From Polyangiaceae bacterium (GTDB lineage Bacteria > Myxococcota_A > Polyangia > Polyangiales > Polyangiaceae): a DNA stretch of 64,000 bases. Shown here in pieces: positions 7,587-59,883 of the stretch. A program made the translations under genes and the position numbers. A model generated the notes under the pieces. That model saw only the letters and a list, made by a program, of their open reading frames with translations. It was not told the origin of the DNA and made no database searches. The stretch spans positions 510 through 64,509 of the forward strand of contig DASVWO010000297.1 of NCBI GenBank assembly GCA_036393165.1, written 5' to 3'. Every line of letters begins with the position of its first letter. Position 1 is the stretch's first letter.

Positions 7587-8870
7587 TCAGCGTTTCGTCA
7601 CGATGAGATGGGCGTGCGAGTCCTTGTCCGGGTACCCGTAGCGGAACGGCAGATCCCGGCTGGGCTGAGCGGCGAAGAGCTTCTTGAGGTCGTCGGCGTC
7701 GCGCTTGTCGGGGTCGCCGAAGGGTGAGGGTCCGTCGAAGGTCCCGTACGTCTCCTGCGTGAAGCCGGCAGGAGCGGCGATGCGGGGCGGAAGACCGGTC
7801 GAGTCCGAGATCATCCAGTCGGTGTGTTCGACCAGCCAGCCGCGGATGAGCGAGAAGTGGTCGTTCCACAGCAGGTGCGTCGCCGCCTTCGTCATCGCCG
7901 AGACCTTCGCCCCACGCGCCGTCAGGTACGCCAGCAGCGACGGGTCGGCCTTCAGGTGCACGTCGTCGAGGTTGAAGCTCACGTGGCGAAGCACCTGCAC
8001 CGGCGCGTCGGCCACTCCGGCGCGCCTGAAGCGCAGCTCCGCGTTGGCGAAGAGGGCGTGACGGTCCCCCGGCCTCTTGGCGGCATCGATGTCCGCCTGC
8101 GTGACGTACGCGAGCGATCCATCGGCCTTGAGCCGGAAGTACCTCAGGCTGACGGGCTCTTCTCCGTGCACCACGAGGGCCGCGAGATCGAAGACGATCT
8201 CTCCGGGCAGCTCGGTCTTCGACTCTTTCTCGAGATTCTCGGTCCGCGAGTGCGCCTTCTCGAACAGCCGCTCGAGATGGGCCCGGTGAACCGCGAGCTC
8301 GTGCGCGAGGAAATCCGGGGCGAGACGGTCGATCGGCCTGATGTCGCCGGCGGGCTCGAGCGAGATCGTCGTGATCTCGCTGGCGTCCGGGAACGTCGCC
8401 AGTGCGCTCACCAGGTCCCCGCCGCCGAACGGATACACGACGACCCCCGGCAGCTCCTTGGGACGGAGCGCCGCGATGAAGGGCTCCGCGACGTCCACCC
8501 AGCTCTTCTTGTAGTCCGCGTAAGCCCGCGAGAGCTCATCGCAGTGCTTCGCCACAACGTTCGCATCGAACCGCGCTGGCAGGTCCCCCGACGCCCCGCA
8601 CGCCGCCACCCGATAGAGCACCTTCGCCTGCGCGACGAAGTCGAGCCCCTCGAGCGGCGGATCCGGGGTCGCGGCCGTGGTCGCGGTCCCGGTCGGGGTC
8701 GGGGTCGGGGTCGCGGTGGCGGTCGCCATCGCGGACCCGGACCCGGATTCGGCCGCGGTGACGGCCGCGGGGGCGGTCGCCGGGTTCGCCGTCGACGACG
8801 CCGACGTCGTCTCCGGCGCCTTCGCGCACGCCGCCCCCAGCGCCAGCGCGACCATCCACCCCATCCTCAT
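7587..8870 (-). CDS. hypothetical lipoprotein with Thr/Pro/Ala linker
   Basis: Inner start of ORF 7587..8996 gives MRMGWMVALALGAAC (lipobox). Its ATG overlaps the stop of the upstream permease (ATGA at 8867-8870). Linker ATATATPTPTPTGTATTAATP. No family recognised. Confidence 0.7.
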   Translation of the reverse strand: MRMGWMVALALGAACAKAPETTSASSTANPATAPAAVTAAESGSGSAMATATATPTPTPTGTATTAATPDPPLEGLDFVAQAKVLYRVAACGASGDLPARFDANVVAKHCDELSRAYADYKKSWVDVAEPFIAALRPKELPGVVVYPFGGGDLVSALATFPDASEITTISLEPAGDIRPIDRLAPDFLAHELAVHRAHLERLFEKAHSRTENLEKESKTELPGEIVFDLAALVVHGEEPVSLRYFRLKADGSLAYVTQADIDAAKRPGDRHALFANAELRFRRAGVADAPVQVLRHVSFNLDDVHLKADPSLLAYLTARGAKVSAMTKAATHLLWNDHFSLIRGWLVEHTDWMISDSTGLPPRIAAPAGFTQETYGTFDGPSPFGDPDKRDADDLKKLFAAQPSRDLPFRYGYPDKDSHAHLIVTKR

Positions 8871-21464: not shown

Positions 21465-22459
<995 letters not shown>

Positions 22460-39991: not shown

Positions 39992-40120
39992 GTTTGCGGC
40001 TCCATGCCCCCACCCAGCGAAATGACCGTGACAGCGAACAATGGCTCCCATCCTCCAGCGAGGAGCTGGCGCGGTCCTTTCGCGCTCGGCATGGAGCCGC
40101 AAACATGAACGCCCACCCGC

Positions 40121-40222
40121 GAGGTCGAGGTCGAGGTCGAGGTCGAGGTCGGGGTCGAGGTCGGGGTCGTGGTCGGGGTCGCGGTCGCGGTCGGGGTCGC
40201 GGTCGGGGTCGCGGTCGCGGTC
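40121..40222. repeat. 17 tandem hexanucleotide units (GAGGTC/GGGGTC/GCGGTC/GTGGTC), non-coding
   Basis: Read directly from the sequence. Ends 11 nt from the stop codon of the response-regulator gene. No start-bearing ORF with coding-like composition spans it. Confidence 0.8.
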
Positions 40223-40233
40223 GCGACGCCCCC

Positions 40234-41000: not shown

Positions 41001-41423
41001 ATGGTGGATTCCATCGTCGTTCGATCCGGAGTGCTGGTGCCCGAAGAGGCCATGGAGTTCCACGCCGTTCGCGCGGGCGGCCCCGGAGGCCAGAACGTCA
41101 ACAAGGTCGCCAGCAAGGTGGAGCTCCGTGTGTCGCTCGATCGCATCGTGGGTCTGGACCCTGATGCGCGCGCACGTCTTCGCTCCCTGTGCGCCGGGCG
41201 TCTCGATGCGGACGGGCGCCTCGTCGTCACGAGCCAGCTGACGCGAGACCAGCGCAAGAACCTGGATGATGCGCGCGACAAGATCCGGGGGCTCGTCGCG
41301 CAGGCTCTGTTCCGTCCCAAGAAGCGACGCGCCACCCGTCCCACACGTGGCTCGGTGGAGCGACGCCTGTCGGACAAGAAGCGTCGCAGCATGAAGAAGT
41401 CGGACCGGCGCGGCGATCACTGA
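41001..41423 (+). CDS. arfB: alternative ribosome-rescue factor ArfB (peptidyl-tRNA hydrolase, GGQ motif)
   Basis: ORF 40983..41423. AVRAGGPGGQNVNKVASKVELR and a basic C-terminal tail KKRRATRPTRGSVERRLSDKKRRS, as in YaeJ/ArfB. Confidence 0.85.
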   Translation: MVDSIVVRSGVLVPEEAMEFHAVRAGGPGGQNVNKVASKVELRVSLDRIVGLDPDARARLRSLCAGRLDADGRLVVTSQLTRDQRKNLDDARDKIRGLVAQALFRPKKRRATRPTRGSVERRLSDKKRRSMKKSDRRGDH

Positions 41424-41466
41424 CGCGCCACGCGGCACGCTGGTTGCTCGATGGAGGGCAGCCGTC

Positions 41467-43224
41467 GTGCTTCGCTTGCTTTCCGTCGCCGGCACCGCCG
41501 TCGCCCTCGCTGCGTGCAGCGGCTGGCATCCCCGCTCGCAGGTGGACTTCGCGGTGGTCCCACCGATCGACGGCACCGCGCTGCGCTATCGCGTTCACTC
41601 GCTGCGCGGCGACTGGACGCGCGAGTTCATGGTGAATCGCGAGTCCTTCGCGGAGCTTCGCACCATCGCCGGGCGGCAGTACGCGATCGGCCTGCTCGGC
41701 ACCCATACGTGGATGCGGGTGGGAAACCGCGCCCCCGTCGAGGTCGACGGCGATCTCGCCGCCGACGAGCGACGAGAGGCGGCATGGATCGGCATGCGCT
41801 TCGCCGAGCCGCAGCCGGGCGAGCACATGGAGCTCGAATCCTGCGCCAAGGAGGTGTGCACGTTCGTGTACACGCCTCGCGACGGCCACGCCTTGTGGGT
41901 GGACGTGGACCGCGGGACGCGGCGCCCCCGCTCCTTCGACTGGGTGACGCAGAACGACGCGATCGAGAGCTGCGACGACGTGACCTGGAGCGAACGCGAC
42001 GGGGTGCTCGCCGTCGCGTCGGCCACGTGCAGCGCCATCGTGAACGACGTCGGGCGCGAGACGACGACGTGGACGCTCGAGGAGCGCACCCCCGCGCCGC
42101 TCGCGCCCGAGTGGGCGCGCGTCGATCCCGACGAGATCGTCCCGCTTCCGGAGCTGCGCGATGCCGCTCGCTTCCCGATCGCCGATCCGTCGATGCGCGT
42201 GTACGTGCCCGTGGAAGCCGGAGGCAGCGATCGCGCGCAGCTCGTGCTCGACACGGGCTCGCCGGTGACGGTGCTCTCGCGGCGCTTCATCGACGCGATC
42301 GGCGTCGTCCCCTCCCCCGATCCGCCGATGCACGTGCACCCGCCGTGGCTCCCCGAGGACACGTACGACACCGCGCTCGTCGATCGCCTCGTCATGGGCG
42401 ACGTGGAGCTGCACGGTGTGCAGGTGCTCGTGCCGCGCAACGACACGCCGTTCGACGACGACGAGGCGGGGCTTCTCGGCATGGACGTGATGCGGCGGTT
42501 CGTCGTCGACGTGGACGGCCCGGCGAGCGAGCTTCGCATCTGGGCGCGCGATCGCTTTCCTGCGGCGGACGGCGCGTTCGCCGACATCCCCTTCTGGGGC
42601 GCATCGCACAGGCGCGTCGTCGTCGCTGGCGACGTCGACGAGGTCGGCGCCATCCCCATGCTCCTCGACACGGGGGCTCCCTTGAACATCGTCGTGGGCG
42701 GACCGGCGATGCACGCCGCGCATCCGCGCAGCCGCGACGACGACGCCGTGCTGCGCGAGGACGGGAGCGCCTCCGACTACGCCACCGAGGTGAACGGCTT
42801 CCACCTCGGCCCCTTCGGCTTCGGCCGCACGCCGGTGTACGCCCACGATCGCGTGCCCGATCTCTCCTTCCTCGACGACGACAGCGCCCTCGTGGGCCTC
42901 GGCGTCATGCGGCACTTCCGCCTCGCCTTCGACGCCGGCCGCGGCGTGGTGCACGCCGCCCCCGGGCCGAGCTACGTCGTGCTCTCGCGCCTGGGGATCG
43001 AGATCGACGAGCGCGCGGGCCAGCCGGTCGTCACGCGCATCGTGGACGGCGAGCGTTCGTGGAACCAGCCGCTGCGCGTCGGCGACGTCGTGCGGCGCGT
43101 GGACGGTCGCGCCGTGTACTCGCGCAACGAAGCTCTGTCGGCCGTCGCGAGCGCGAGCCGCGCCGTGCGCCTCACGGTGGAGCGCCAGGGCAACCGCATC
43201 ACGCGCACCCTCGCGCTCTACTGA
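41467..43224 (+). CDS. lipoprotein with two retropepsin-like aspartyl-protease lobes (two DTG motifs) and a C-terminal PDZ domain
   Basis: ORF 585 aa (GTG start). MLRLLSVAGTAVALAAC lipobox. LVLDTGSPVTVL and MLLDTGAPLNIV. C-terminal VTRIVDGERSWNQPLRVGDVVRRVDGRAV (PDZ-like). Confidence 0.7.
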   Translation: MLRLLSVAGTAVALAACSGWHPRSQVDFAVVPPIDGTALRYRVHSLRGDWTREFMVNRESFAELRTIAGRQYAIGLLGTHTWMRVGNRAPVEVDGDLAADERREAAWIGMRFAEPQPGEHMELESCAKEVCTFVYTPRDGHALWVDVDRGTRRPRSFDWVTQNDAIESCDDVTWSERDGVLAVASATCSAIVNDVGRETTTWTLEERTPAPLAPEWARVDPDEIVPLPELRDAARFPIADPSMRVYVPVEAGGSDRAQLVLDTGSPVTVLSRRFIDAIGVVPSPDPPMHVHPPWLPEDTYDTALVDRLVMGDVELHGVQVLVPRNDTPFDDDEAGLLGMDVMRRFVVDVDGPASELRIWARDRFPAADGAFADIPFWGASHRRVVVAGDVDEVGAIPMLLDTGAPLNIVVGGPAMHAAHPRSRDDDAVLREDGSASDYATEVNGFHLGPFGFGRTPVYAHDRVPDLSFLDDDSALVGLGVMRHFRLAFDAGRGVVHAAPGPSYVVLSRLGIEIDERAGQPVVTRIVDGERSWNQPLRVGDVVRRVDGRAVYSRNEALSAVASASRAVRLTVERQGNRITRTLALY

Positions 43225-44699
43225 GCCTGCAGCGCCACGACGACCGCTCCAGCCGTCCCGTAGTTGAGCACGTAGAGCCGATCGCCCACGAGCACCGGAT
43301 CGAACGCCCCTGTCAGCGAGTAGTTCCCGAGCTGCATCCCGCTCGTCAGCGAGAGGACCGCGATGCCCATGCTCCCGGTGACGACAAGCGTGTTGCTCGA
43401 GGTCGCCGCCGCCAGCGTCGTCGGCGCGAGGCTCGCCATGGGCTCCTGCGCCTGCGGGCAGGAGAGGAAGTCCACCGTGTTCTGGTCGTACCCGTGCTGC
43501 CCGGCTCCCTGCACCATGGTCGACCACGCCGCCTTGCCGGTCATCGCATCGAACGCGAGGACGTGGTCGCTCGTCGCGACGATCACGAGCCCGGCGGCTT
43601 GCACCGGAGGCGACGTGCTGACGGCCTGCGCCATCGCCTGAATCGGCGCAGACCAGGCGATGCTTCCGTCCGTCTCGCTGCGCGCCACGAGCGCCGGCCC
43701 CGGCTCGATGCCGTAGACGTGCCCGTCCCCCGCGCTGATGGCGCTGTTCGGCGTGGACGGGACCGACCACTTCTTGGTGCCGCTCGCCGCATCGAACGCG
43801 TACAGGCCCGAGGGGAACATGAACGTCACTCCCGCGTCGGCGGGCTCCAGTCCACCCTGCGGCGCGCCCACCTCGTAACGGGGCGCGAAGTACAGGACGG
43901 TCCCGTCCACGGCGAGCCCGCCGTTCTCGTCGCCGATGGCCGGCTGACACGCGCCCTGCTGGTTCGCCTTCCACGCCATCTGCCCCTTGGTCTGATCCCA
44001 CGCCCCCACGAAGGCGCCCGGACCGTCGCCGTGGGTGACATCCACGACGTAGAAGCGGCTCGTGTCCGCCGCCGTCTGTCCCCACCAGTCGACGCCGCTC
44101 GTGTGCGCGAGCCCACCGTCGCCGACGTCGACCTGGTAGACGCCGTCGTCCTGGATCATCACGTAGCCCAGGCCGACGGAGAGCCAGTTGCCGTTGTCGA
44201 AGTCGGCGCCGCCGTGATAGCGCCAGGTCCGCGCACCTGTCGCGGCGGACACCTTGTCCGCGCTGGGCACGGTCCCGAGCTGCATGTGCACGTAGAGCGA
44301 TGTCGTGTCTGCCACCTCGTTCGCCGGCACCCCCGCGAAGCCCCCGTCCGGCGAGGGTGGCGGATAGCGCCACAGCTCCTTGAAGGAGGTGTGGATGCAG
44401 GCGCTCGAGGCGGACGTGCGTCGCGCGTCGTGCCCGTAGGTGCTCCACGCATCCGGGTTCGCCGGCGGTCCGTGACAGGGAGGAGGAGGTCCGGCCTCCG
44501 CCTCGGCGGTGCCCGAATCTCCGGCCTCGGACGCTCCGTCGACCGGCGCGATCCCGTCGACCATCTCCGGCCCGTCATCACTCATCGGGCCGCCCTCTGC
44601 GCTCCCCTGGTTGCTCGACGTGGTGCCGCATCCGGCGTCGACACCGGCGACGAGCACCACGACACCCCCGAGGATCGACGCGACCAGAAGGCGTTGCAT
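43218..44699 (-). CDS. PQQ-like (BamB-like) beta-propeller repeat lipoprotein
   Basis: ORF 493 aa. MQRLLVASILGGVVVLVAGVDAGC lipobox. Recurrent W/G-rich beta-propeller blades (G.VY....DG.L.A.DA.TG...W). Confidence 0.65.
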   Translation of the reverse strand: MQRLLVASILGGVVVLVAGVDAGCGTTSSNQGSAEGGPMSDDGPEMVDGIAPVDGASEAGDSGTAEAEAGPPPPCHGPPANPDAWSTYGHDARRTSASSACIHTSFKELWRYPPPSPDGGFAGVPANEVADTTSLYVHMQLGTVPSADKVSAATGARTWRYHGGADFDNGNWLSVGLGYVMIQDDGVYQVDVGDGGLAHTSGVDWWGQTAADTSRFYVVDVTHGDGPGAFVGAWDQTKGQMAWKANQQGACQPAIGDENGGLAVDGTVLYFAPRYEVGAPQGGLEPADAGVTFMFPSGLYAFDAASGTKKWSVPSTPNSAISAGDGHVYGIEPGPALVARSETDGSIAWSAPIQAMAQAVSTSPPVQAAGLVIVATSDHVLAFDAMTGKAAWSTMVQGAGQHGYDQNTVDFLSCPQAQEPMASLAPTTLAAATSSNTLVVTGSMGIAVLSLTSGMQLGNYSLTGAFDPVLVGDRLYVLNYGTAGAVVVALQAQ

Positions 44700-44756
44700 G
44701 GGTCCTCATGGTACGCCCCCTGCGCCGGGGGTAACCTGAAGCCTGTGGTACCCCGG

Positions 44757-45254
44757 GTGTTGAGCGCACTGCTCCTGGGCTCCTCGCTCTTCGCCCTCGC
44801 TCCCGGGGCCTCGGCGGCCGAGAGGGGGAAGATCGACGTCGACGTCGTGAACGCCGACGTCCGAAACGTGCTCCGCCTCTTCGCAGACGTGGGCCACGTG
44901 AACCTCGTCCTCGGCGACGACGTCTCGGGCATGGTCACAGTTCGATTCGTGAACGTGCCGTGGGAGATCGCGATGCGCTCGGTCCTGTCCGTGAAGGGCC
45001 TCGCGATGGAGCGCACGGGGAACATCATTCGTGTGCAGAAGGCCGAGGCTTTCGCGAAGGAAAGGGCAGCGCGCCTGTCGGCCCACGAGCTCTGTGTCGC
45101 GACTGCACCGCTTCAGACCCAGATCATTCGCCTCTCGTATGCTGATCCCGAGCAGGTTGCAGCCATGATCCGGCCCACGTTGACCAAGCGTGGAAGCGTG
45201 ATCGTGGACACACGAACGAACACCCTCCTCATCATCGACGTGCACTGCGACTGA
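44757..45254 (+). CDS. secretin N-terminal fragment (PilQ/GspD-like N0-N1 domains only; the C-terminal secretin pore domain is missing)
   Basis: Last ~165 codons of ORF 41451..45254. Signal LSALLLGSSLFALAPGASA. IDVDVVNADVRNVLRLFADVGHVNLVLGDDVSGMVTVRFVNVPWEIAMRSVLSVKGL...GNIIRV and IIRLSYADPEQVAAMIRP...GSVIVDTRTNTLLIID, then a stop. Start could be GTG 44745, GTG 44757 or TTG 44760. Confidence 0.7.
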   Translation: MLSALLLGSSLFALAPGASAAERGKIDVDVVNADVRNVLRLFADVGHVNLVLGDDVSGMVTVRFVNVPWEIAMRSVLSVKGLAMERTGNIIRVQKAEAFAKERAARLSAHELCVATAPLQTQIIRLSYADPEQVAAMIRPTLTKRGSVIVDTRTNTLLIIDVHCD

Positions 45255-45260
45255 CTCTGC

Positions 45261-45657
45261 GGCGCGGATGATCCGACGGCCTGGCGCACGACTGGCGCTG
45301 GCGCCTGCGGGATGATCCGGTCGCGTGGCGCATACGCCTTCACAGGCACGATGGCTGACGTGAAATGGTGGCGCCCGTACACCGGCGATGCCCTGGTTTG
45401 CGCACGATGACTGGCGCAGTTGGATCGCATCATCGTCGCTTCCCCCTTCAATCTCTGTCGCAGAGTGACCCAACCCCACGGCCTCTTCGCTTCTCATCTG
45501 GCGCACTTGGTTGGCTCCAGTGGCGCAGTACGTCGCGACTGGAGCGCCACGATGCGAAGCACGATGGGCCGGATCGACATCCCTCCCCGGGTCACTTCAG
45601 CCGATGTGCGCCACGATGTAGCCGATGTGGCGCAGGATAAACGGGGTGTCTGCGCCA
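45261..45657. promoter_or_regulatory. array of TGGCGCA/TGCGCCA heptamers and CACGATG motifs in a lower-GC non-coding island
   Basis: Exact TGGCGCA at 45282, 45326, 45412, 45499, 45521 and 45628. Exact complement TGCGCCA at 45607 and 45651. One-mismatch copies at 45293, 45299, 45369, 45398 and 45543. Five CACGATG. Imperfect 28-nt direct repeat 45261-45288 / 45305-45332. Confidence 0.6.
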
Positions 45658-45714
45658 GAGTGCGTGACATCCACGGGTCCTGGTGCTTCGCTGTGAGCCA
45701 CAGGAGAGGGACAA

Positions 45715-46266
45715 GTGAGCCTCGTTCGCATCCTGAAGGACCCGGCGCTGCTCGTGCACGCGCAGCAGGCGCTCGGGTGCAGCCAGGAACAGCTGGGAAG
45801 TGTGGCAGGCGTCTCGCGTCGCACCGTCACGCGATGGATCTCGGACGGCTCGTGCCCCAACATCGTCGAGTGGGCTCACATCGCCAGGGCCGTCTACCCG
45901 AAGGATCGTGCGCTGTGCGAGAGGATCGCCAAAGCGATGGGCGAGTCCCTGATCACCCTGGGGCTCGAGGCTCCTGCGCCTCCTCCTCCACCTCCCACGC
46001 CGGTGCTCCTAAATCCGACGCCTCCCGGACCTCCTCCCCGGCCCTTCCCACCCACGAACGATCTCGTGGACTCCATCGTGTGTGCCGCGGCGGAGGCGAT
46101 CGGATCGCCGCCTGGATCCATGCGTCCGGCGCTCATCGCCGCGTTCGATCGCACGGCGTCCCTGGGTCTCGACGTGGAGGAGGTCCGCTCCGGACTGCGA
46201 AGGACGCGGGAACCTACGGCGAGGCAGCGCTCTCGGACCGGGAGGCTCCCGGGTCGATCCCGCTGA
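45715..46266 (+). CDS. Xre/Cro-like HTH transcriptional regulator with Pro-rich linker and unknown C-terminal domain
   Basis: ORF 183 aa. GTG start with GGAGAGGG 5 nt upstream. HTH CSQEQLGSVAGVSRRTVTRWISDG. The 3' end overlaps the convergent P450 gene by 53 nt. Confidence 0.65.
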   Translation: MSLVRILKDPALLVHAQQALGCSQEQLGSVAGVSRRTVTRWISDGSCPNIVEWAHIARAVYPKDRALCERIAKAMGESLITLGLEAPAPPPPPPTPVLLNPTPPGPPPRPFPPTNDLVDSIVCAAAEAIGSPPGSMRPALIAAFDRTASLGLDVEEVRSGLRRTREPTARQRSRTGRLPGRSR

Positions 46267-50852: not shown

Positions 50853-52024
50853 ATGCACTGGTTCTGGCCGTTGCACGTCGTTCCGCCGTTGCACACGCCG
50901 CCGGCGCAGCAGATCTGGCCGCTCGCGCCGCAAGCGGTGCACGTTCCCGCCGTCGGCTTGCAGGCATAGCCCACGCTGCACCAGTAGCCGCCCGGGTTGT
51001 TGGCGAGGCAGCACGGCTCGTTGGGTCCGCCGCAGCCGGCGCACGTGTTGTTCTGGCACGAGGTGAAGGGCGCGGTGCACTCGACGTTGTTTCCGCAGCA
51101 CGGCTCGCCCGGACCGCCGCAGGTGCCGCCGCCGCACGCGCCGTTCTTGCACGCGCCCGTGCCGCCGCCGCACATGGCTCCGTTGCCGACGCAGGTGCGC
51201 GTCGATCGGTCGCAGCAGCCCCCGCCGTTGCAGGAGGATCCATCGCAGCACGGCTGCCCGGGGCCGCCGCACGCCGCGCACTTGTCCTGGCTGTTGCAGG
51301 CATCCCCGGATGCGACGCAGAAGTTGCCGCTCCAGGAGTTGCCGTTCATCGCGCCCACGCAGCACGCCTGGCCGTCCGACCCACAGCCGGAGCACGTGCT
51401 GTTGTTGCACATCCCGAGCTGCATCGAGCCGCAGCTTCCGCCGGAATTGGCGCACACCCCGTCGACGCAGCACCGCTTGCCGGTGCAGGAGTCGATCGCG
51501 CAGCACGGTTGCGCCGGGCCGCCGCAGGTGGCGAGCGTCCCGTCGACGCAGACCGTCGTTCCCGTGCCCTCGCCACGCGCGAGGCAGGTCCCACCGCTGC
51601 AGCAGCCGCCTCCCGTGCACGCCGTGCCGTTGCAGCATGCCTCGCCGGGCTGTCCGCACGGACTGCCTCCCGAGGAAGAGCCGCTGCTGCTGCCGGCGCC
51701 GCTGCTGCTCCCACTGCTGCTGCCGGCGCCGCTGCTGCTCCCGCTGCCGCTGCTGCTGCCGCTGCTGCTCGCGCTACCGCTGCTGCTCCCGCTGCCGCTG
51801 CTGCTGCCGCTGCTGCTCGCGCTGCCGCTGCTGCTGCTCCCGCTGCCGCTGCTGCTGCCCGAGCTGCTGGACGACCCGTCTCCCCCCGAGTCGCCGCCGG
51901 TGGACGCGTCCTCGGTGGATCCGCCGCCCTGGTACTTGTCGAAGTTCAGCCCGCAGGCGCTGAAGAGGGCAGCAGCCGCGATCGCCGCGACGACCCCCGG
52001 GCGCAGGAGAGCCATTGGATTCAT
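50849..52024 (-). CDS. lipoprotein with ~90-aa Ser/Gly linker and an extremely Cys-rich repeat domain (7 x CG-x3-(Q/E)-x-CC modules, 52 Cys)
   Basis: ORF 391 aa. MNPMALLRPGVVAAIAAAALFSAC lipobox. Modules CGQPGEACC, CGGPAQPCC, CGSDGQACC, CGGPGQPCC, CGGPGEPCC, CGGPNEPCC, CGASGQICC. Confidence 0.75.
   Translation of the reverse strand: MNPMALLRPGVVAAIAAAALFSACGLNFDKYQGGGSTEDASTGGDSGGDGSSSSSGSSSGSGSSSSGSASSSGSSSGSGSSSGSASSSGSSSGSGSSSGAGSSSGSSSGAGSSSGSSSGGSPCGQPGEACCNGTACTGGGCCSGGTCLARGEGTGTTVCVDGTLATCGGPAQPCCAIDSCTGKRCCVDGVCANSGGSCGSMQLGMCNNSTCSGCGSDGQACCVGAMNGNSWSGNFCVASGDACNSQDKCAACGGPGQPCCDGSSCNGGGCCDRSTRTCVGNGAMCGGGTGACKNGACGGGTCGGPGEPCCGNNVECTAPFTSCQNNTCAGCGGPNEPCCLANNPGGYWCSVGYACKPTAGTCTACGASGQICCAGGVCNGGTTCNGQNQCM
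51660..51930. repeat. imperfect tandem GCTGCTGCC/GCCGCT-type repeats encoding the Ser/Gly linker
   Basis: Near-identical 30-50 bp blocks are visible in the sequence. Similar low-complexity tracts at about 1015-1290 and 59463-59790. Confidence 0.7.
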
Positions 52025-58602: not shown

Positions 58603-59883
58603 CTACAGACCGGCAGTGGAGACGGGGCCGGTGTCGACGACCTCGAAGTCGCTGCCGTGGACCTTGCCGAAATCGGTCGAGATCTGGCCCATCAGGTTCG
58701 TCCAGCCGTCGTCGCTGTCGCCGCTGATGAACCAGTTGCTCCCGTTGTCGGCGAGGATGATGCCGTACTGCTTCATCGCCGTCAGGATGACGAGCGACGG
58801 GCCGGTGAACGATGAGGTGTCGAAGCTCGCCTTGAGGCGCAGGCGCAGGCCCATCGGGGGCAGCGATGCGTTGCTCGAGCCGGCGGCGTGCGTCGCCGGG
58901 TGGATGTAGCCGTTGTACGAGCTGGCCATCGTGAAGCGGATCGCGTGGTTGATGGCGCCCGCGTTGACCTCCGCGACCTTCACGAGGCCGGGGAGCACGG
59001 GCAGCCCGGCGGCGTCGGCCGAGGTCCATCCGTCGGGGCGCAGGTTGTTCGAGGAGAGATCGAAGACGGCGCCTGACCCGCAGCTCCAGCCCGGATTGCT
59101 GTACGTGCTGTCCCAGGTCTCGTAGAGCTTGCAGCTGCCCGAATCGACGACGAGCACGTGCATGTCGCCGCCGGAGCCCGCGCCGCCCTCGACGAGCGCG
59201 TTGGCCGGGAACGGGTACGGCCCCGGATCGCTCTCGTCCGCGTACTGGAACGTCATGGGCACCATCGTCTGGCTGCCGGGGACGCTCTGATACGGGATGC
59301 CATAGTGGTCGCTCGACCAGTCGCCCCAGTCGGGATGCAGATGCGTCGTGGGCGCCATGTTGGCGATGTACGTCGCCGAGTTGGAGTTGAGCGGCAGGCT
59401 GTCGACGCGCGTGTTCCACGGGTTGTCGGCCGGGAAGAGCTGGCAGCCACCGATGGTCGGCAGGCTGCCTCCGCTGCTGCTCCCGCCGCTGCTGCTGCCG
59501 GAGCTCCCGCCGCTGCTGCCACCACTGCTTCCACCGCTGCTGCCGCCGCTGCCGCTCCCGCTGCCACTGCCGCTGGATCCGCCGCTGCCGCTGCCGCCGC
59601 CGCTCGAACCCCCGCTGCTGTTCGATCCGCCGCTGCTGCCGCTGCTCCCGCCGCTGTTGCTGCCGCCGGCGACGCCGCTGCTGCTGCCGCTGGCGCCCCC
59701 GCTGCCGCTGCTGCTGGTGCTCCCACCGGAGCTGCTGCCGCTCGAACCGCCGCTGCTGCCGGCGCCTCCTCCATCGTCCCCTGCTCCGAAGGGCGAGCCC
59801 TGGGTGCCCGTGGCGTCGGACGCACATGCACCGAGGAGCAACCCGGCGGCGGCAGTGACGGCGAAGACAGAAGCAGTTCGCAT
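58603..59883 (-). CDS. lipoprotein with ~110-aa Gly/Ser linker and a conserved-looking C-terminal globular domain of unknown function
   Basis: ORF 426 aa. MRTASVFAVTAAAGLLLGAC lipobox. C-terminal domain CQLFPADNPWNTRVD...HAIRFTM...YIHPATHAAG...YGIILADNGSNWFISG. Confidence 0.75.
   Translation of the reverse strand: MRTASVFAVTAAAGLLLGACASDATGTQGSPFGAGDDGGGAGSSGGSSGSSSGGSTSSSGSGGASGSSSGVAGGSNSGGSSGSSGGSNSSGGSSGGGSGSGGSSGSGSGSGSGGSSGGSSGGSSGGSSGSSSGGSSSGGSLPTIGGCQLFPADNPWNTRVDSLPLNSNSATYIANMAPTTHLHPDWGDWSSDHYGIPYQSVPGSQTMVPMTFQYADESDPGPYPFPANALVEGGAGSGGDMHVLVVDSGSCKLYETWDSTYSNPGWSCGSGAVFDLSSNNLRPDGWTSADAAGLPVLPGLVKVAEVNAGAINHAIRFTMASSYNGYIHPATHAAGSSNASLPPMGLRLRLKASFDTSSFTGPSLVILTAMKQYGIILADNGSNWFISGDSDDGWTNLMGQISTDFGKVHGSDFEVVDTGPVSTAGL

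Follow-up and report, generated by a model that had tools for sequence, protein, structure and literature searches.

What is a 460-bp stretch of non-coding DNA packed with copies of a single heptamer for, and which protein reads it? This question is raised by positions 45255-45714 of a 64,000-nucleotide stretch of DNA from a Polyangiaceae bacterium (hereafter the window), a gap that separates a small gene with STN and Secretin_N domains from the gene of an Xre-type regulator (45715-46266). The gap contains six exact copies of TGGCGCA (at 45282, 45326, 45412, 45499, 45521 and 45628) and two of TGCGCCA, the same word on the other strand (at 45607 and 45651). We found that these words form a regular lattice, that arrays of this kind recur upstream of related regulator genes, and that the word changes together with the recognition helix of the regulator. 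Comparison of these sequences suggests that the gap is probably a dedicated multivalent DNA target of the Xre protein encoded directly downstream, which would repress its own promoter cooperatively.

The heptamer is strongly concentrated in the gap. The whole window carries 43 copies of TGGCGCA or TGCGCCA, both strands included, and 8 of the 43 fall inside the gap, a mere 0.7% of the total length. The density in the remainder of the window predicts 0.25 copies per 460 bp (Poisson probability of at least 8 copies, 3.4e-10), in line with an earlier note on this DNA, made from the letters alone, which had estimated well under one. That note left room for the heptamer being equally dense in ordinary intergenic regions; within the window it is not, with 0.17 copies per 460 bp of non-coding-like DNA elsewhere (0.27 in coding DNA) against 8 in the gap and a maximum of 3 in any other 460-bp stretch. 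A single heptamer occurs about once per 1.8 kb of window DNA, and the window-wide count of 43 compares with 16 in shuffled sequences. All the exact counts and coordinates of TGGCGCA, TGCGCCA and CACGATG in the earlier note were recovered, as were the inverted pair TGCGCCA-N14-TGGCGCA, the lower G+C content of the gap (62-65% versus ~70% in the flanks) and the lack of a coding signal, with stops in all frames and no signal in the G+C content of third codon positions (GC3). One-mismatch copies number seven rather than the five counted before, and the direct repeat described as 28 nt does recur at a spacing of 44 bp, its copies measuring 23 nt here and being 83% identical. The five copies of CACGATG are present, but the significance given to them does not hold: the motif is kept in no orthologue of the gap and was ruled out as a second motif because of this lack of conservation; it is flank sequence specific to the window.

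The key property of the sites, overlooked by the earlier note, is their phasing. With one-mismatch copies included, successive sites are spaced by 22, 44, 43, 43, 44, 43, 22, 22, 22, 42, 21, 23 and 43 bp. A least-squares fit gave a lattice period of 21.66 bp, with a root-mean-square error of 0.45 bp over 435 bp; this lattice spans 21 nodes (0-20), 14 of which are occupied (0, 1, 3, 5, 7, 9, 11, 12, 13, 14, 16, 17, 18 and 20). A Rayleigh-type periodogram showed peaks at 21.7 and 10.85 bp, and among 2000 random placements the best Rayleigh power was reached 21 times for the window and 0, 1 and 0 times for its three orthologues. Because the period corresponds to two turns of B-DNA, all sites look to roughly one side of the helix. 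As for orientation, sites far from the gene are directed at it and those close by are directed away, the change coming near -230. Tandem Repeats Finder did not detect the array because the conserved part covers only 7 of the ~22 bp of each unit.

The lattice is also what has been kept in related genomes. The closest relatives of the downstream Xre protein (82-88% identity) are encoded on contigs with the same gene order, namely the STN/Secretin_N gene, a gap of ~460 bp, the Xre gene and a convergent cytochrome P450 gene, and both flanks are alike in loci L001, L003, L005 and L006. The earlier note had suggested looking for insertion boundaries by aligning such regions; both flanks proved syntenic in the orthologues, without any insertion boundary. 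When four independent gaps were aligned, pairwise identity was 88% in the heptamer columns and 41% in the spacer columns, the latter being about random for the composition of the gap, and site offsets from the start codon were fixed to ±1 bp (±2 at node 9) among orthologues. Since words and offsets are kept and spacers are not, selection has acted on the words and on how far apart they stand, but not on the letters of the spacers. Such a footprint looks like that of protein-binding sites on duplex DNA and would be unexpected for a protein-coding or RNA gene. The array and its sites are the following:

45260-45700, no strand: whole phased heptamer array (lattice fit, Rayleigh test, conservation of sites versus spacers)
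45260-45266, plus strand: node 0, degenerate CGGCGCG in the window, TGGCGCA in three orthologues (orthologue alignment)
45282-45288, plus strand: node 1, TGGCGCA (exact match, alignment)
45326-45332, plus strand: node 3, TGGCGCA (exact match, alignment)
45369-45375, plus strand: node 5, TGGCGCC, in orthologues TGGCGC followed by A or T (alignment)
45412-45418, plus strand: node 7, TGGCGCA, invariant across orthologues (exact match, alignment)
45456-45462, plus strand: node 9, weak variant TGTCGCA, also found in three of four orthologues (alignment)
45499-45505, plus strand: node 11, TGGCGCA (exact match, alignment)
45521-45527, plus strand: node 12, TGGCGCA, invariant (exact match, alignment)
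45543-45549, minus strand: node 13, AGCGCCA as read on the plus strand (alignment)
45565-45571, minus strand: node 14, degenerate TGGGCCG in the window, TGCGCCG, TGCGCCT or the further-degenerate TGCGTCT in orthologues (alignment)
45607-45613, minus strand: node 16, TGCGCCA (exact match, alignment)
45628-45634, plus strand: node 17, TGGCGCA (exact match, alignment)
45651-45657, minus strand: node 18, TGCGCCA, 6 bp upstream of the putative -35 (exact match, alignment)
45694-45700, minus strand: node 20, TGAGCCA in the window, TGCGCCA in three orthologues, over the predicted +1 (alignment)

A few near-copies stand off the lattice (TGGCGCT, TGGCGCC and TTGCGCA, at 45293-45305 and 45398-45404). 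They occur in the window only, are absent in orthologues and probably arose by drift or recent slippage.

The array belongs to a family of regulators that is previously unnamed. A profile of the protein family covered 14 loci in species genomes, 10 of them labelled Polyangiaceae and 4 'uncultured delta proteobacterium', and 67 loci from metagenomes; all 14 genome loci are metagenome-assembled, none coming from a cultured isolate, and a genome may carry up to three paralogues of the regulator. An exhaustive search returned 362 clusters at 50% identity with E <= 1e-30 (978 with E <= 1e-10), and nearly all of the best 150 matches listed span both domains of the protein. No model in NCBIfam, PADLOC or PHROG names the family, and no member was found in plasmid (72,556 plasmids), phage or viral-contig collections. 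In the literature searched, neither the motif nor the family was described and nothing specific turned up on comparable myxobacterial systems, which agrees, as far as this can be checked, with the statement in the earlier note that the heptamer is not a known consensus. The unit that recurs is a regulator gene preceded by 250-700 bp in which 12-30 phased heptamers stand. Paralogous loci have just the array and the Xre gene in common, their neighbours being different: tblastn with the proteins of the window neighbours showed that the STN, PQQ and P450 genes are confined to orthologous loci. Linkage of the array to the upstream STN/Secretin_N gene or to the P450 gene was ruled out for this reason. 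An all-against-all comparison of 252 neighbouring open reading frames (ORFs) found nothing shared across non-orthologous loci, and in particular no recurring partner of the ParA, antagonist or toxin kind.

Phasing is a property of the family as well. Upstream of 53 non-redundant loci, drawn from metagenome-assembled Polyangiaceae genomes and from soil metagenomes, the best 21-bp phasing power had a median of 10.6, compared with 5.0 for 152 control blocks taken on these contigs (Mann-Whitney p = 8e-13), and a power of 8 or more was reached by 66% of the upstream regions versus 15% of the controls. At L085, forward and reverse sites alternate on an exact 21.000-bp lattice of 14 nodes; L076 has the same exact 21.000-bp lattice, with ~30 sites over ~700 bp; and L045 carries 12 sites with a palindromic core, one every 21 bp. 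A sequence logo from 269 sites of 17 loci has exactly seven informative positions, with 1.2-1.5 bits each and at most 0.15 bits in the flanks, and therefore suits one helix-turn-helix (HTH) domain in one major groove per site. Within the ~700-bp array of L076, seven whole 21-bp units (caacaagCCCGCCAttcgcgt) follow each other almost identically between -396 and -249 from the gene start, a recent tandem duplication from which the way that arrays expand can be read.

The order of the proximal sites is common to the window clade and to the L007/L024 clade, whose proteins share 55% identity:

Node 13, reverse: -172 in the window clade, about -169 in the L007/L024 clade
Node 14, reverse: -150 and about -148
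Node 16, reverse: -108 and about -105
Node 17, forward: -87 and about -85
Node 18, reverse: -64 and about -62
Node 19, forward: unoccupied in the window clade, about -42 in the L007/L024 clade
Node 20, reverse: -21 and about -20

The strongest argument for the adjacent protein as the reader of the array came from comparing the recognition helices of the paralogues with the words upstream of their genes, which change together:

GVSRRT(V/M)TRW with TGGCGCA: 22 non-redundant loci, mean of 5.3 exact TGGCGCA and 0 TGGCGGG per upstream region
GSSLRTVQR(W/Y) with TGGCGG(G/C): 7 non-redundant loci, mean of 0 TGGCGCA and 5.4 TGGCGGG
..RTGQRW with TGGCGCC: L046 and L017
GCS(T/S)RT..RYY with TGTCAGC: L035, 11 exact copies
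(G/D)CS(E/P)RT..RYY with TGTCCGG: L040 and L057
GLERRSVMKW with GGTACCT: L045

This co-variation of helix and heptamer supports the suggestion of the earlier note that the 45715-46266 protein may be the binder. The features of its gene and of the putative promoter are:

45715-46266, plus strand: cognate regulator gene, 183 aa, GTG start (Pfam, family alignment, structure models)
45664-45692, plus strand: putative sigma-70-type promoter of the regulator gene (conserved block, read by eye)

The regulator consists of a five-helix Xre-type HTH domain (residues 10-74), a proline-rich linker (~75-113) and a three-helix C-terminal module (114-163, motif DLVDSIVCAAAEA). Pfam reports HTH_3 at 28.5 bits (cut-off 23), plus Xre-like-HTH. 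A profile search of solved structures matched MbcA, HigA and P22 C2, and Foldseek with the regulator model matched lambda cI, C.Kpn2I and C.BclI, in both cases over the HTH part only. The full-length structure model was confident, with a predicted local distance difference test (pLDDT) score of 82.6, and had a linker devoid of secondary structure, and the C-terminal module modelled by itself reached 92. This module gave no fold match with E < 2, and no sequence match was obtained beyond the HTH, yet within the family it is conserved better than any other part of the protein, with an invariant V-C-A-A and conserved P, R and R. Its segment DSIVCAAAEA, which includes the invariant cysteine (residues 119-128; ~46069-46098 of the window), is the most conserved segment of the family across differing DNA specificities and may be a partner-docking or a redox- or ligand-sensing surface. 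At its 3′ end, the regulator gene overlaps the convergent P450 gene (46214-47641, minus strand) by ~53 bp (46214-46266), an overlap that is kept in relatives (9866-9918 in L001).

Between nodes 18 and 20, a block composed of (G/C)TGACA, a 17-bp spacer ending in TGC and T(T/C)nnnT is conserved across the two subclades that share 55% protein identity, while the other spacers vary. We read it as the putative -35, extended -10 and -10 elements of the regulator gene. In the window, the putative -35 is GTGACA (45664-45669), followed by the 17-bp spacer ending in TGC with TG at 45684-45685, and by TTCGCT as -10 (45687-45692); transcription is predicted to start near 45699, and a ribosome-binding site GGAG (45703-45706) stands just after node 20. 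Relative to this promoter, which was read by eye and is not reported by a sigma-70 consensus scanner at its thresholds, node 18 lies just upstream of the -35 and node 20 over the +1, and the L007 clade has an additional site inside the promoter spacer. A terminator scan found none between the upstream gene and the array. A sigma-54 -24/-12 element, brought to mind by the resemblance of TGGCGCA to TGGCAC, was looked for by eye and rejected because no -12 TTGC is suitably placed in the orthologues.

All in all, the following mechanism is probably the best explanation of these results. Lattice, footprint, linkage and co-variation can be seen in the sequences themselves; binding, its stoichiometry, the part played by the C-terminal module, the transcription start and the sign of regulation are inferred from them. 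Each HTH domain would read one asymmetric 7-bp word, TGGCGCA in the window, and because the words stand every 21.66 bp or a multiple of it, the bound domains would share roughly one face of the DNA over ~435 bp. The long, flexible, proline-rich linker would allow the HTH to dock in either orientation, and the three-helix C-terminal modules would couple neighbours into a one-faced assembly. A single 7-bp word occurs thousands of times in a genome of such size; with a lone heptamer about every 1.8 kb, specificity would have to come from avidity on the lattice, and only the phased array would constitute a unique, high-avidity address. With the last nodes on either side of the -35 and over the +1 of the regulator's putative promoter, assembly would shut this promoter off. 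Since occupancy of the array should exclude RNA polymerase, we infer negative autoregulation, which would be cooperative as the outcome of assembly over the protein's own promoter. Arrays themselves would grow through tandem duplication of a 21-bp unit whose spacers drift afterwards.

Several observations weigh against this account. The co-variation rests on about five independent specificity switches, and protein and array are inherited together, so that the statistics are not phylogenetically independent. Around one third of the family loci show only weak or degenerate arrays with a simple detector, and the negative result of the promoter scanner belongs here too. The C-terminal module, the most conserved of all, spans clades that differ in DNA specificity, and an external partner common to all would explain its conservation no less well than self-assembly. 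Moreover, simple autoregulation needs 1-3 operators and not 12-30, and the array may serve another purpose. It is therefore conceivable, though we hold it to be the lesser possibility, that every paralogue forms a polymer along a two-turn lattice of 12-30 heptamers private to it, building a large one-faced or superhelical body whose main job goes beyond ordinary autoregulation. Such a body might act as a bistable epigenetic switch, as a dosage sensor coupled to replication or a titration sink, or as an insulator of transcription; in the very large myxobacterial chromosomes (over 10 Mb) it might also be a centromere-like landmark that needs no motor. The C-terminal module with its invariant VCAAAE and conserved Cys would then dock a shared partner or sense a signal.

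Other explanations assign the array to a different function or a different reader. It could be a centromere-like or chromosome-landmark site, on which a segrosome-type wrapped or filamentous complex would position or pair DNA or organise domains, with autoregulation as a by-product. A cis site and a trans factor inherited as a self-contained module with a private, co-varying specificity would suit such a role, as would 12-30 sites over 250-700 bp, far beyond regulatory need, a period of 21.66 bp that deviates slightly from two 10.5-bp turns and would give a gentle superhelical path, and a very conserved C-terminal module to which a common partner could bind; repression of the binder's own promoter is likewise known from centromere-binding proteins (PMC6009700, PMC3074150, PMC5016525). 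However, neither a ParA, ParM or TubZ-type motor nor any other gene recurs beside the module among the 252 neighbouring ORFs, the family is absent from the 72,556 plasmids, its loci lie on chromosomes in conserved synteny, the fold of the binder is Xre and neither ribbon-helix-helix nor ParB, and the repeats are non-contiguous, with 14 unconserved bp between them, all of which makes this role unlikely. It is rather improbable that some other factor, such as a global regulator or a nucleoid protein, binds the array and regulates the Xre gene. The two paralogues L006 and L007, which reside in one metagenome-assembled genome, share TGGCGCA, so the word is not strictly private; yet the heptamer differs by clade and tracks residues of the recognition helix, and no second gene is linked to the module. 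With TGTCAGC, GGTACCT, TGGCGGG and TGGCGCA each upstream of a different paralogue, one global factor cannot explain the arrays.

The remaining explanations fit the data still less. A replication origin of the iteron type, or the copy-control locus of a replicon that is integrated or a relic, would share with the array the ~22-bp phasing, both orientations, a cis-encoded binder, the predicted overlap with its promoter and the clade specificity (compare the RctB 11/12-mers; PMC11711613). We consider it highly improbable: the protein has no Rep-type initiator domain, Pfam and NCBIfam giving HTH_3 only; there is no AT-rich unwinding element, the lowest G+C content of any 30 bp in 45100-45800 being 50%; no DnaA box occurs within one mismatch, and two candidates at two mismatches look like chance; no excess of GATC, an origin feature, was found; only 7 of ~22 bp are conserved per unit, in spite of a phasing of 21.0-21.7 bp; plasmids, phages and viral contigs hold no family members; and both flanks are syntenic genes of housekeeping type. 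Even less credence is due to the idea that the array works as RNA, with UGGCGCA and UGCGCCA paired or bound in a structured RNA, a protein sponge or a long 5′ untranslated region of regulatory function. Forward copies in the 5′ half could indeed pair with reverse copies in the 3′ half, and upstream gene and array have no terminator between them. Against this, Rfam 15 at E <= 10 gave only two chance matches, both outside the array, so that no known RNA family covers the region, a case that the earlier note had raised; minimum-free-energy z-scores were -1.0 and -0.9 for the two strands; the covariation term of the consensus fold was unfavourable (+3.5); identical helices would pair ambiguously; and the mixed orientation, the variants with a palindromic core (GGTACC) and the two-turn period point to duplex DNA. 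The least probable of all is that the array is a mobile-element end, a set of arm-type recombinase sites, decayed coding sequence or chance composition. Transposon ends and attP arms do bear several sites in phase, high-GC coding DNA often contains CTGGCGCA as a run of Leu-Ala-Gln/His codons, and the heptamer exceeds its count in shuffles across the window. Nevertheless, synteny is kept on both sides with no transposase or integrase present; the sites fall in all three frames, with stops in each and no GC3 signal, at spacings that are not multiples of 3; heptamers are conserved while spacers are randomised; and chance is excluded by P about 3e-10. Among the four options of the earlier note, a protein-binding array of the multi-operator or iteron-like kind is thus retained, and arm-type sites and transposon ends are set aside in view of the syntenic flanks, the lack of any recurring recombinase or transposase, and the absence of the family from plasmid, phage and viral collections.

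Upstream of the array, the region looked different from what the earlier note had described. Its 'secretin fragment' is the end of a 1267-aa ORF (41451-45254) that GC3 frame analysis showed to be a read-through of several real genes, an artefact of the long open frames in 70%-GC DNA:

41395-43224, plus strand: real gene under the 1267-aa ORF (GC3 phase)
43218-44705, minus strand: real gene, orthologue of a PQQ_2-domain gene in L001 (GC3 phase, orthology)
about 44745-45254, plus strand: small STN/Secretin_N gene, 169-171 aa (GC3 phase, orthologues)

The STN/Secretin_N protein is made of a signal peptide, STN and Secretin_N, and matches only positions 3-151 of the 428-position PilQ model. It represents only the N-terminal N0/N1 part of a PilQ/HofQ-type secretin, without the barrel, in a stand-alone secreted protein. 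Orthologues in four metagenomic relatives have 170-182 aa, 89% mean column identity and the same ...DV(H/S/N)CD stop, so rather than a fragment this is a conserved stand-alone gene of ~170 aa, with no fresh truncation and outside the array module. The PQQ_2-type gene between the 41395-type gene and the STN gene is present in the window and L001 and absent from L006, a single-gene presence/absence difference between close relatives. Inside the STN gene, positions 44835-44861 match the Rfam viral frameshift element weev_FSE at 26.8 bits versus a gathering threshold of 40 (E = 0.26), almost certainly by chance. Elsewhere in the window, tandem repeats at 51680-51859, 59464-59761, 21795-21888, 40120-40223, 8664-8780 and 1031-1082 have periods of 6, 12, 18, 24, 30 or 48 bp and are rich in GCTGCT, GGTCGG or CGAGGT; several are within GC3-supported ORFs and the rest just outside. 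As their periods are multiples of 3 and they lie in or near ORFs, they look like low-complexity peptide tracts, and they are unrelated to the heptamer array.

A family of this kind is of use beyond the locus. Its helix-to-heptamer table, with targets readable straight from the genome, offers orthogonal regulator/operator pairs for high-GC hosts and a clean system for the evolution of HTH specificity. It would also be an extreme case of specificity by multivalency, in which a 7-bp word that is meaningless alone in a genome of more than 10 Mb becomes unique on a helical lattice.

How does the array compare with known systems? The classical layout of Xre/cI operators, a dimer on a palindrome or paired half-sites at 1-3 operators, differs from the 14 asymmetric heptamers over 435 bp found here. 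The nearest functional analogue is SinR and the nearest geometric precedent the C repressor of P2. Bacillus subtilis SinR (and likewise SlrR; GTTCTYT) joins an Xre-type DNA-binding domain, monomeric alone, to a small helical C-terminal oligomerisation domain, and it reads a 7-bp asymmetric word present in several copies of varied number and orientation, with avidity gained by multi-site binding (PMC3163267). In contrast, its promoters (eps, tapA) carry a handful of irregular sites at targets and no two-turn lattice of 12-30 sites upstream of its own gene; the module described here has three helices, follows a ~40-residue proline-rich linker and has no detectable sequence or fold relative, homology to the SinR/SinI helical hook included; and no SinI-like antagonist gene is linked to it. 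The C repressors of P2-like phages also have an Xre/cI-type fold and bind non-palindromic 8-bp direct repeats placed 22 bp apart from centre to centre, that is, two turns, which span the core promoter including the -10, and their specificity classes vary among relatives (PMC2995052). Theirs are two half-sites in a phage immunity region, bound by a protein without a C-terminal module, whereas here at least 14 sites in both orientations are chromosomal and have no phage relatives.

Partition centromeres (ParR/parC, TubR/tubC, the omega heptads and SopB/sopC) resemble the proposed system of array and regulator in having 7-12 or more short repeats upstream of the gene or operon of the binder, where they double as operator, in tolerating direct and inverted orientations (omega heptads), and in their filamentous or wrapped complexes and co-evolving specificity (PMC6009700, PMC3074150, PMC5016525). 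Unlike them, the array is not on plasmids and has no motor NTPase gene; its binder has an Xre fold and not a ribbon-helix-helix, winged-HTH or ParB fold, and its 7-bp words are separated by ~14 unconstrained bp. Iterons with Rep initiators (R6K, RK2, P1) have a phasing of ~21-22 bp, both orientations, a cis-encoded autoregulating binder and a specificity private to the replicon. They differ from the array, which has no Rep domain, unwinding element or DnaA boxes, conserves 7 bp per unit and stands in a chromosomal, syntenic context. The 11/12-mers of RctB on Vibrio cholerae Chr2 are iteron-like repeats of the same type, with a Rep initiator (PMC11711613). No system that we compared unites a binder of Xre fold with 12-30 minimal sites on an exact two-turn lattice, in a chromosomal module that stands alone without a motor and whose specificity co-varies across a whole family. 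In its geometry, the array, chromosomal and without a linked motor, resembles plasmid centromeres and iterons more than operators, and this likeness leads to hypotheses on higher-order nucleoprotein assemblies in myxobacteria.

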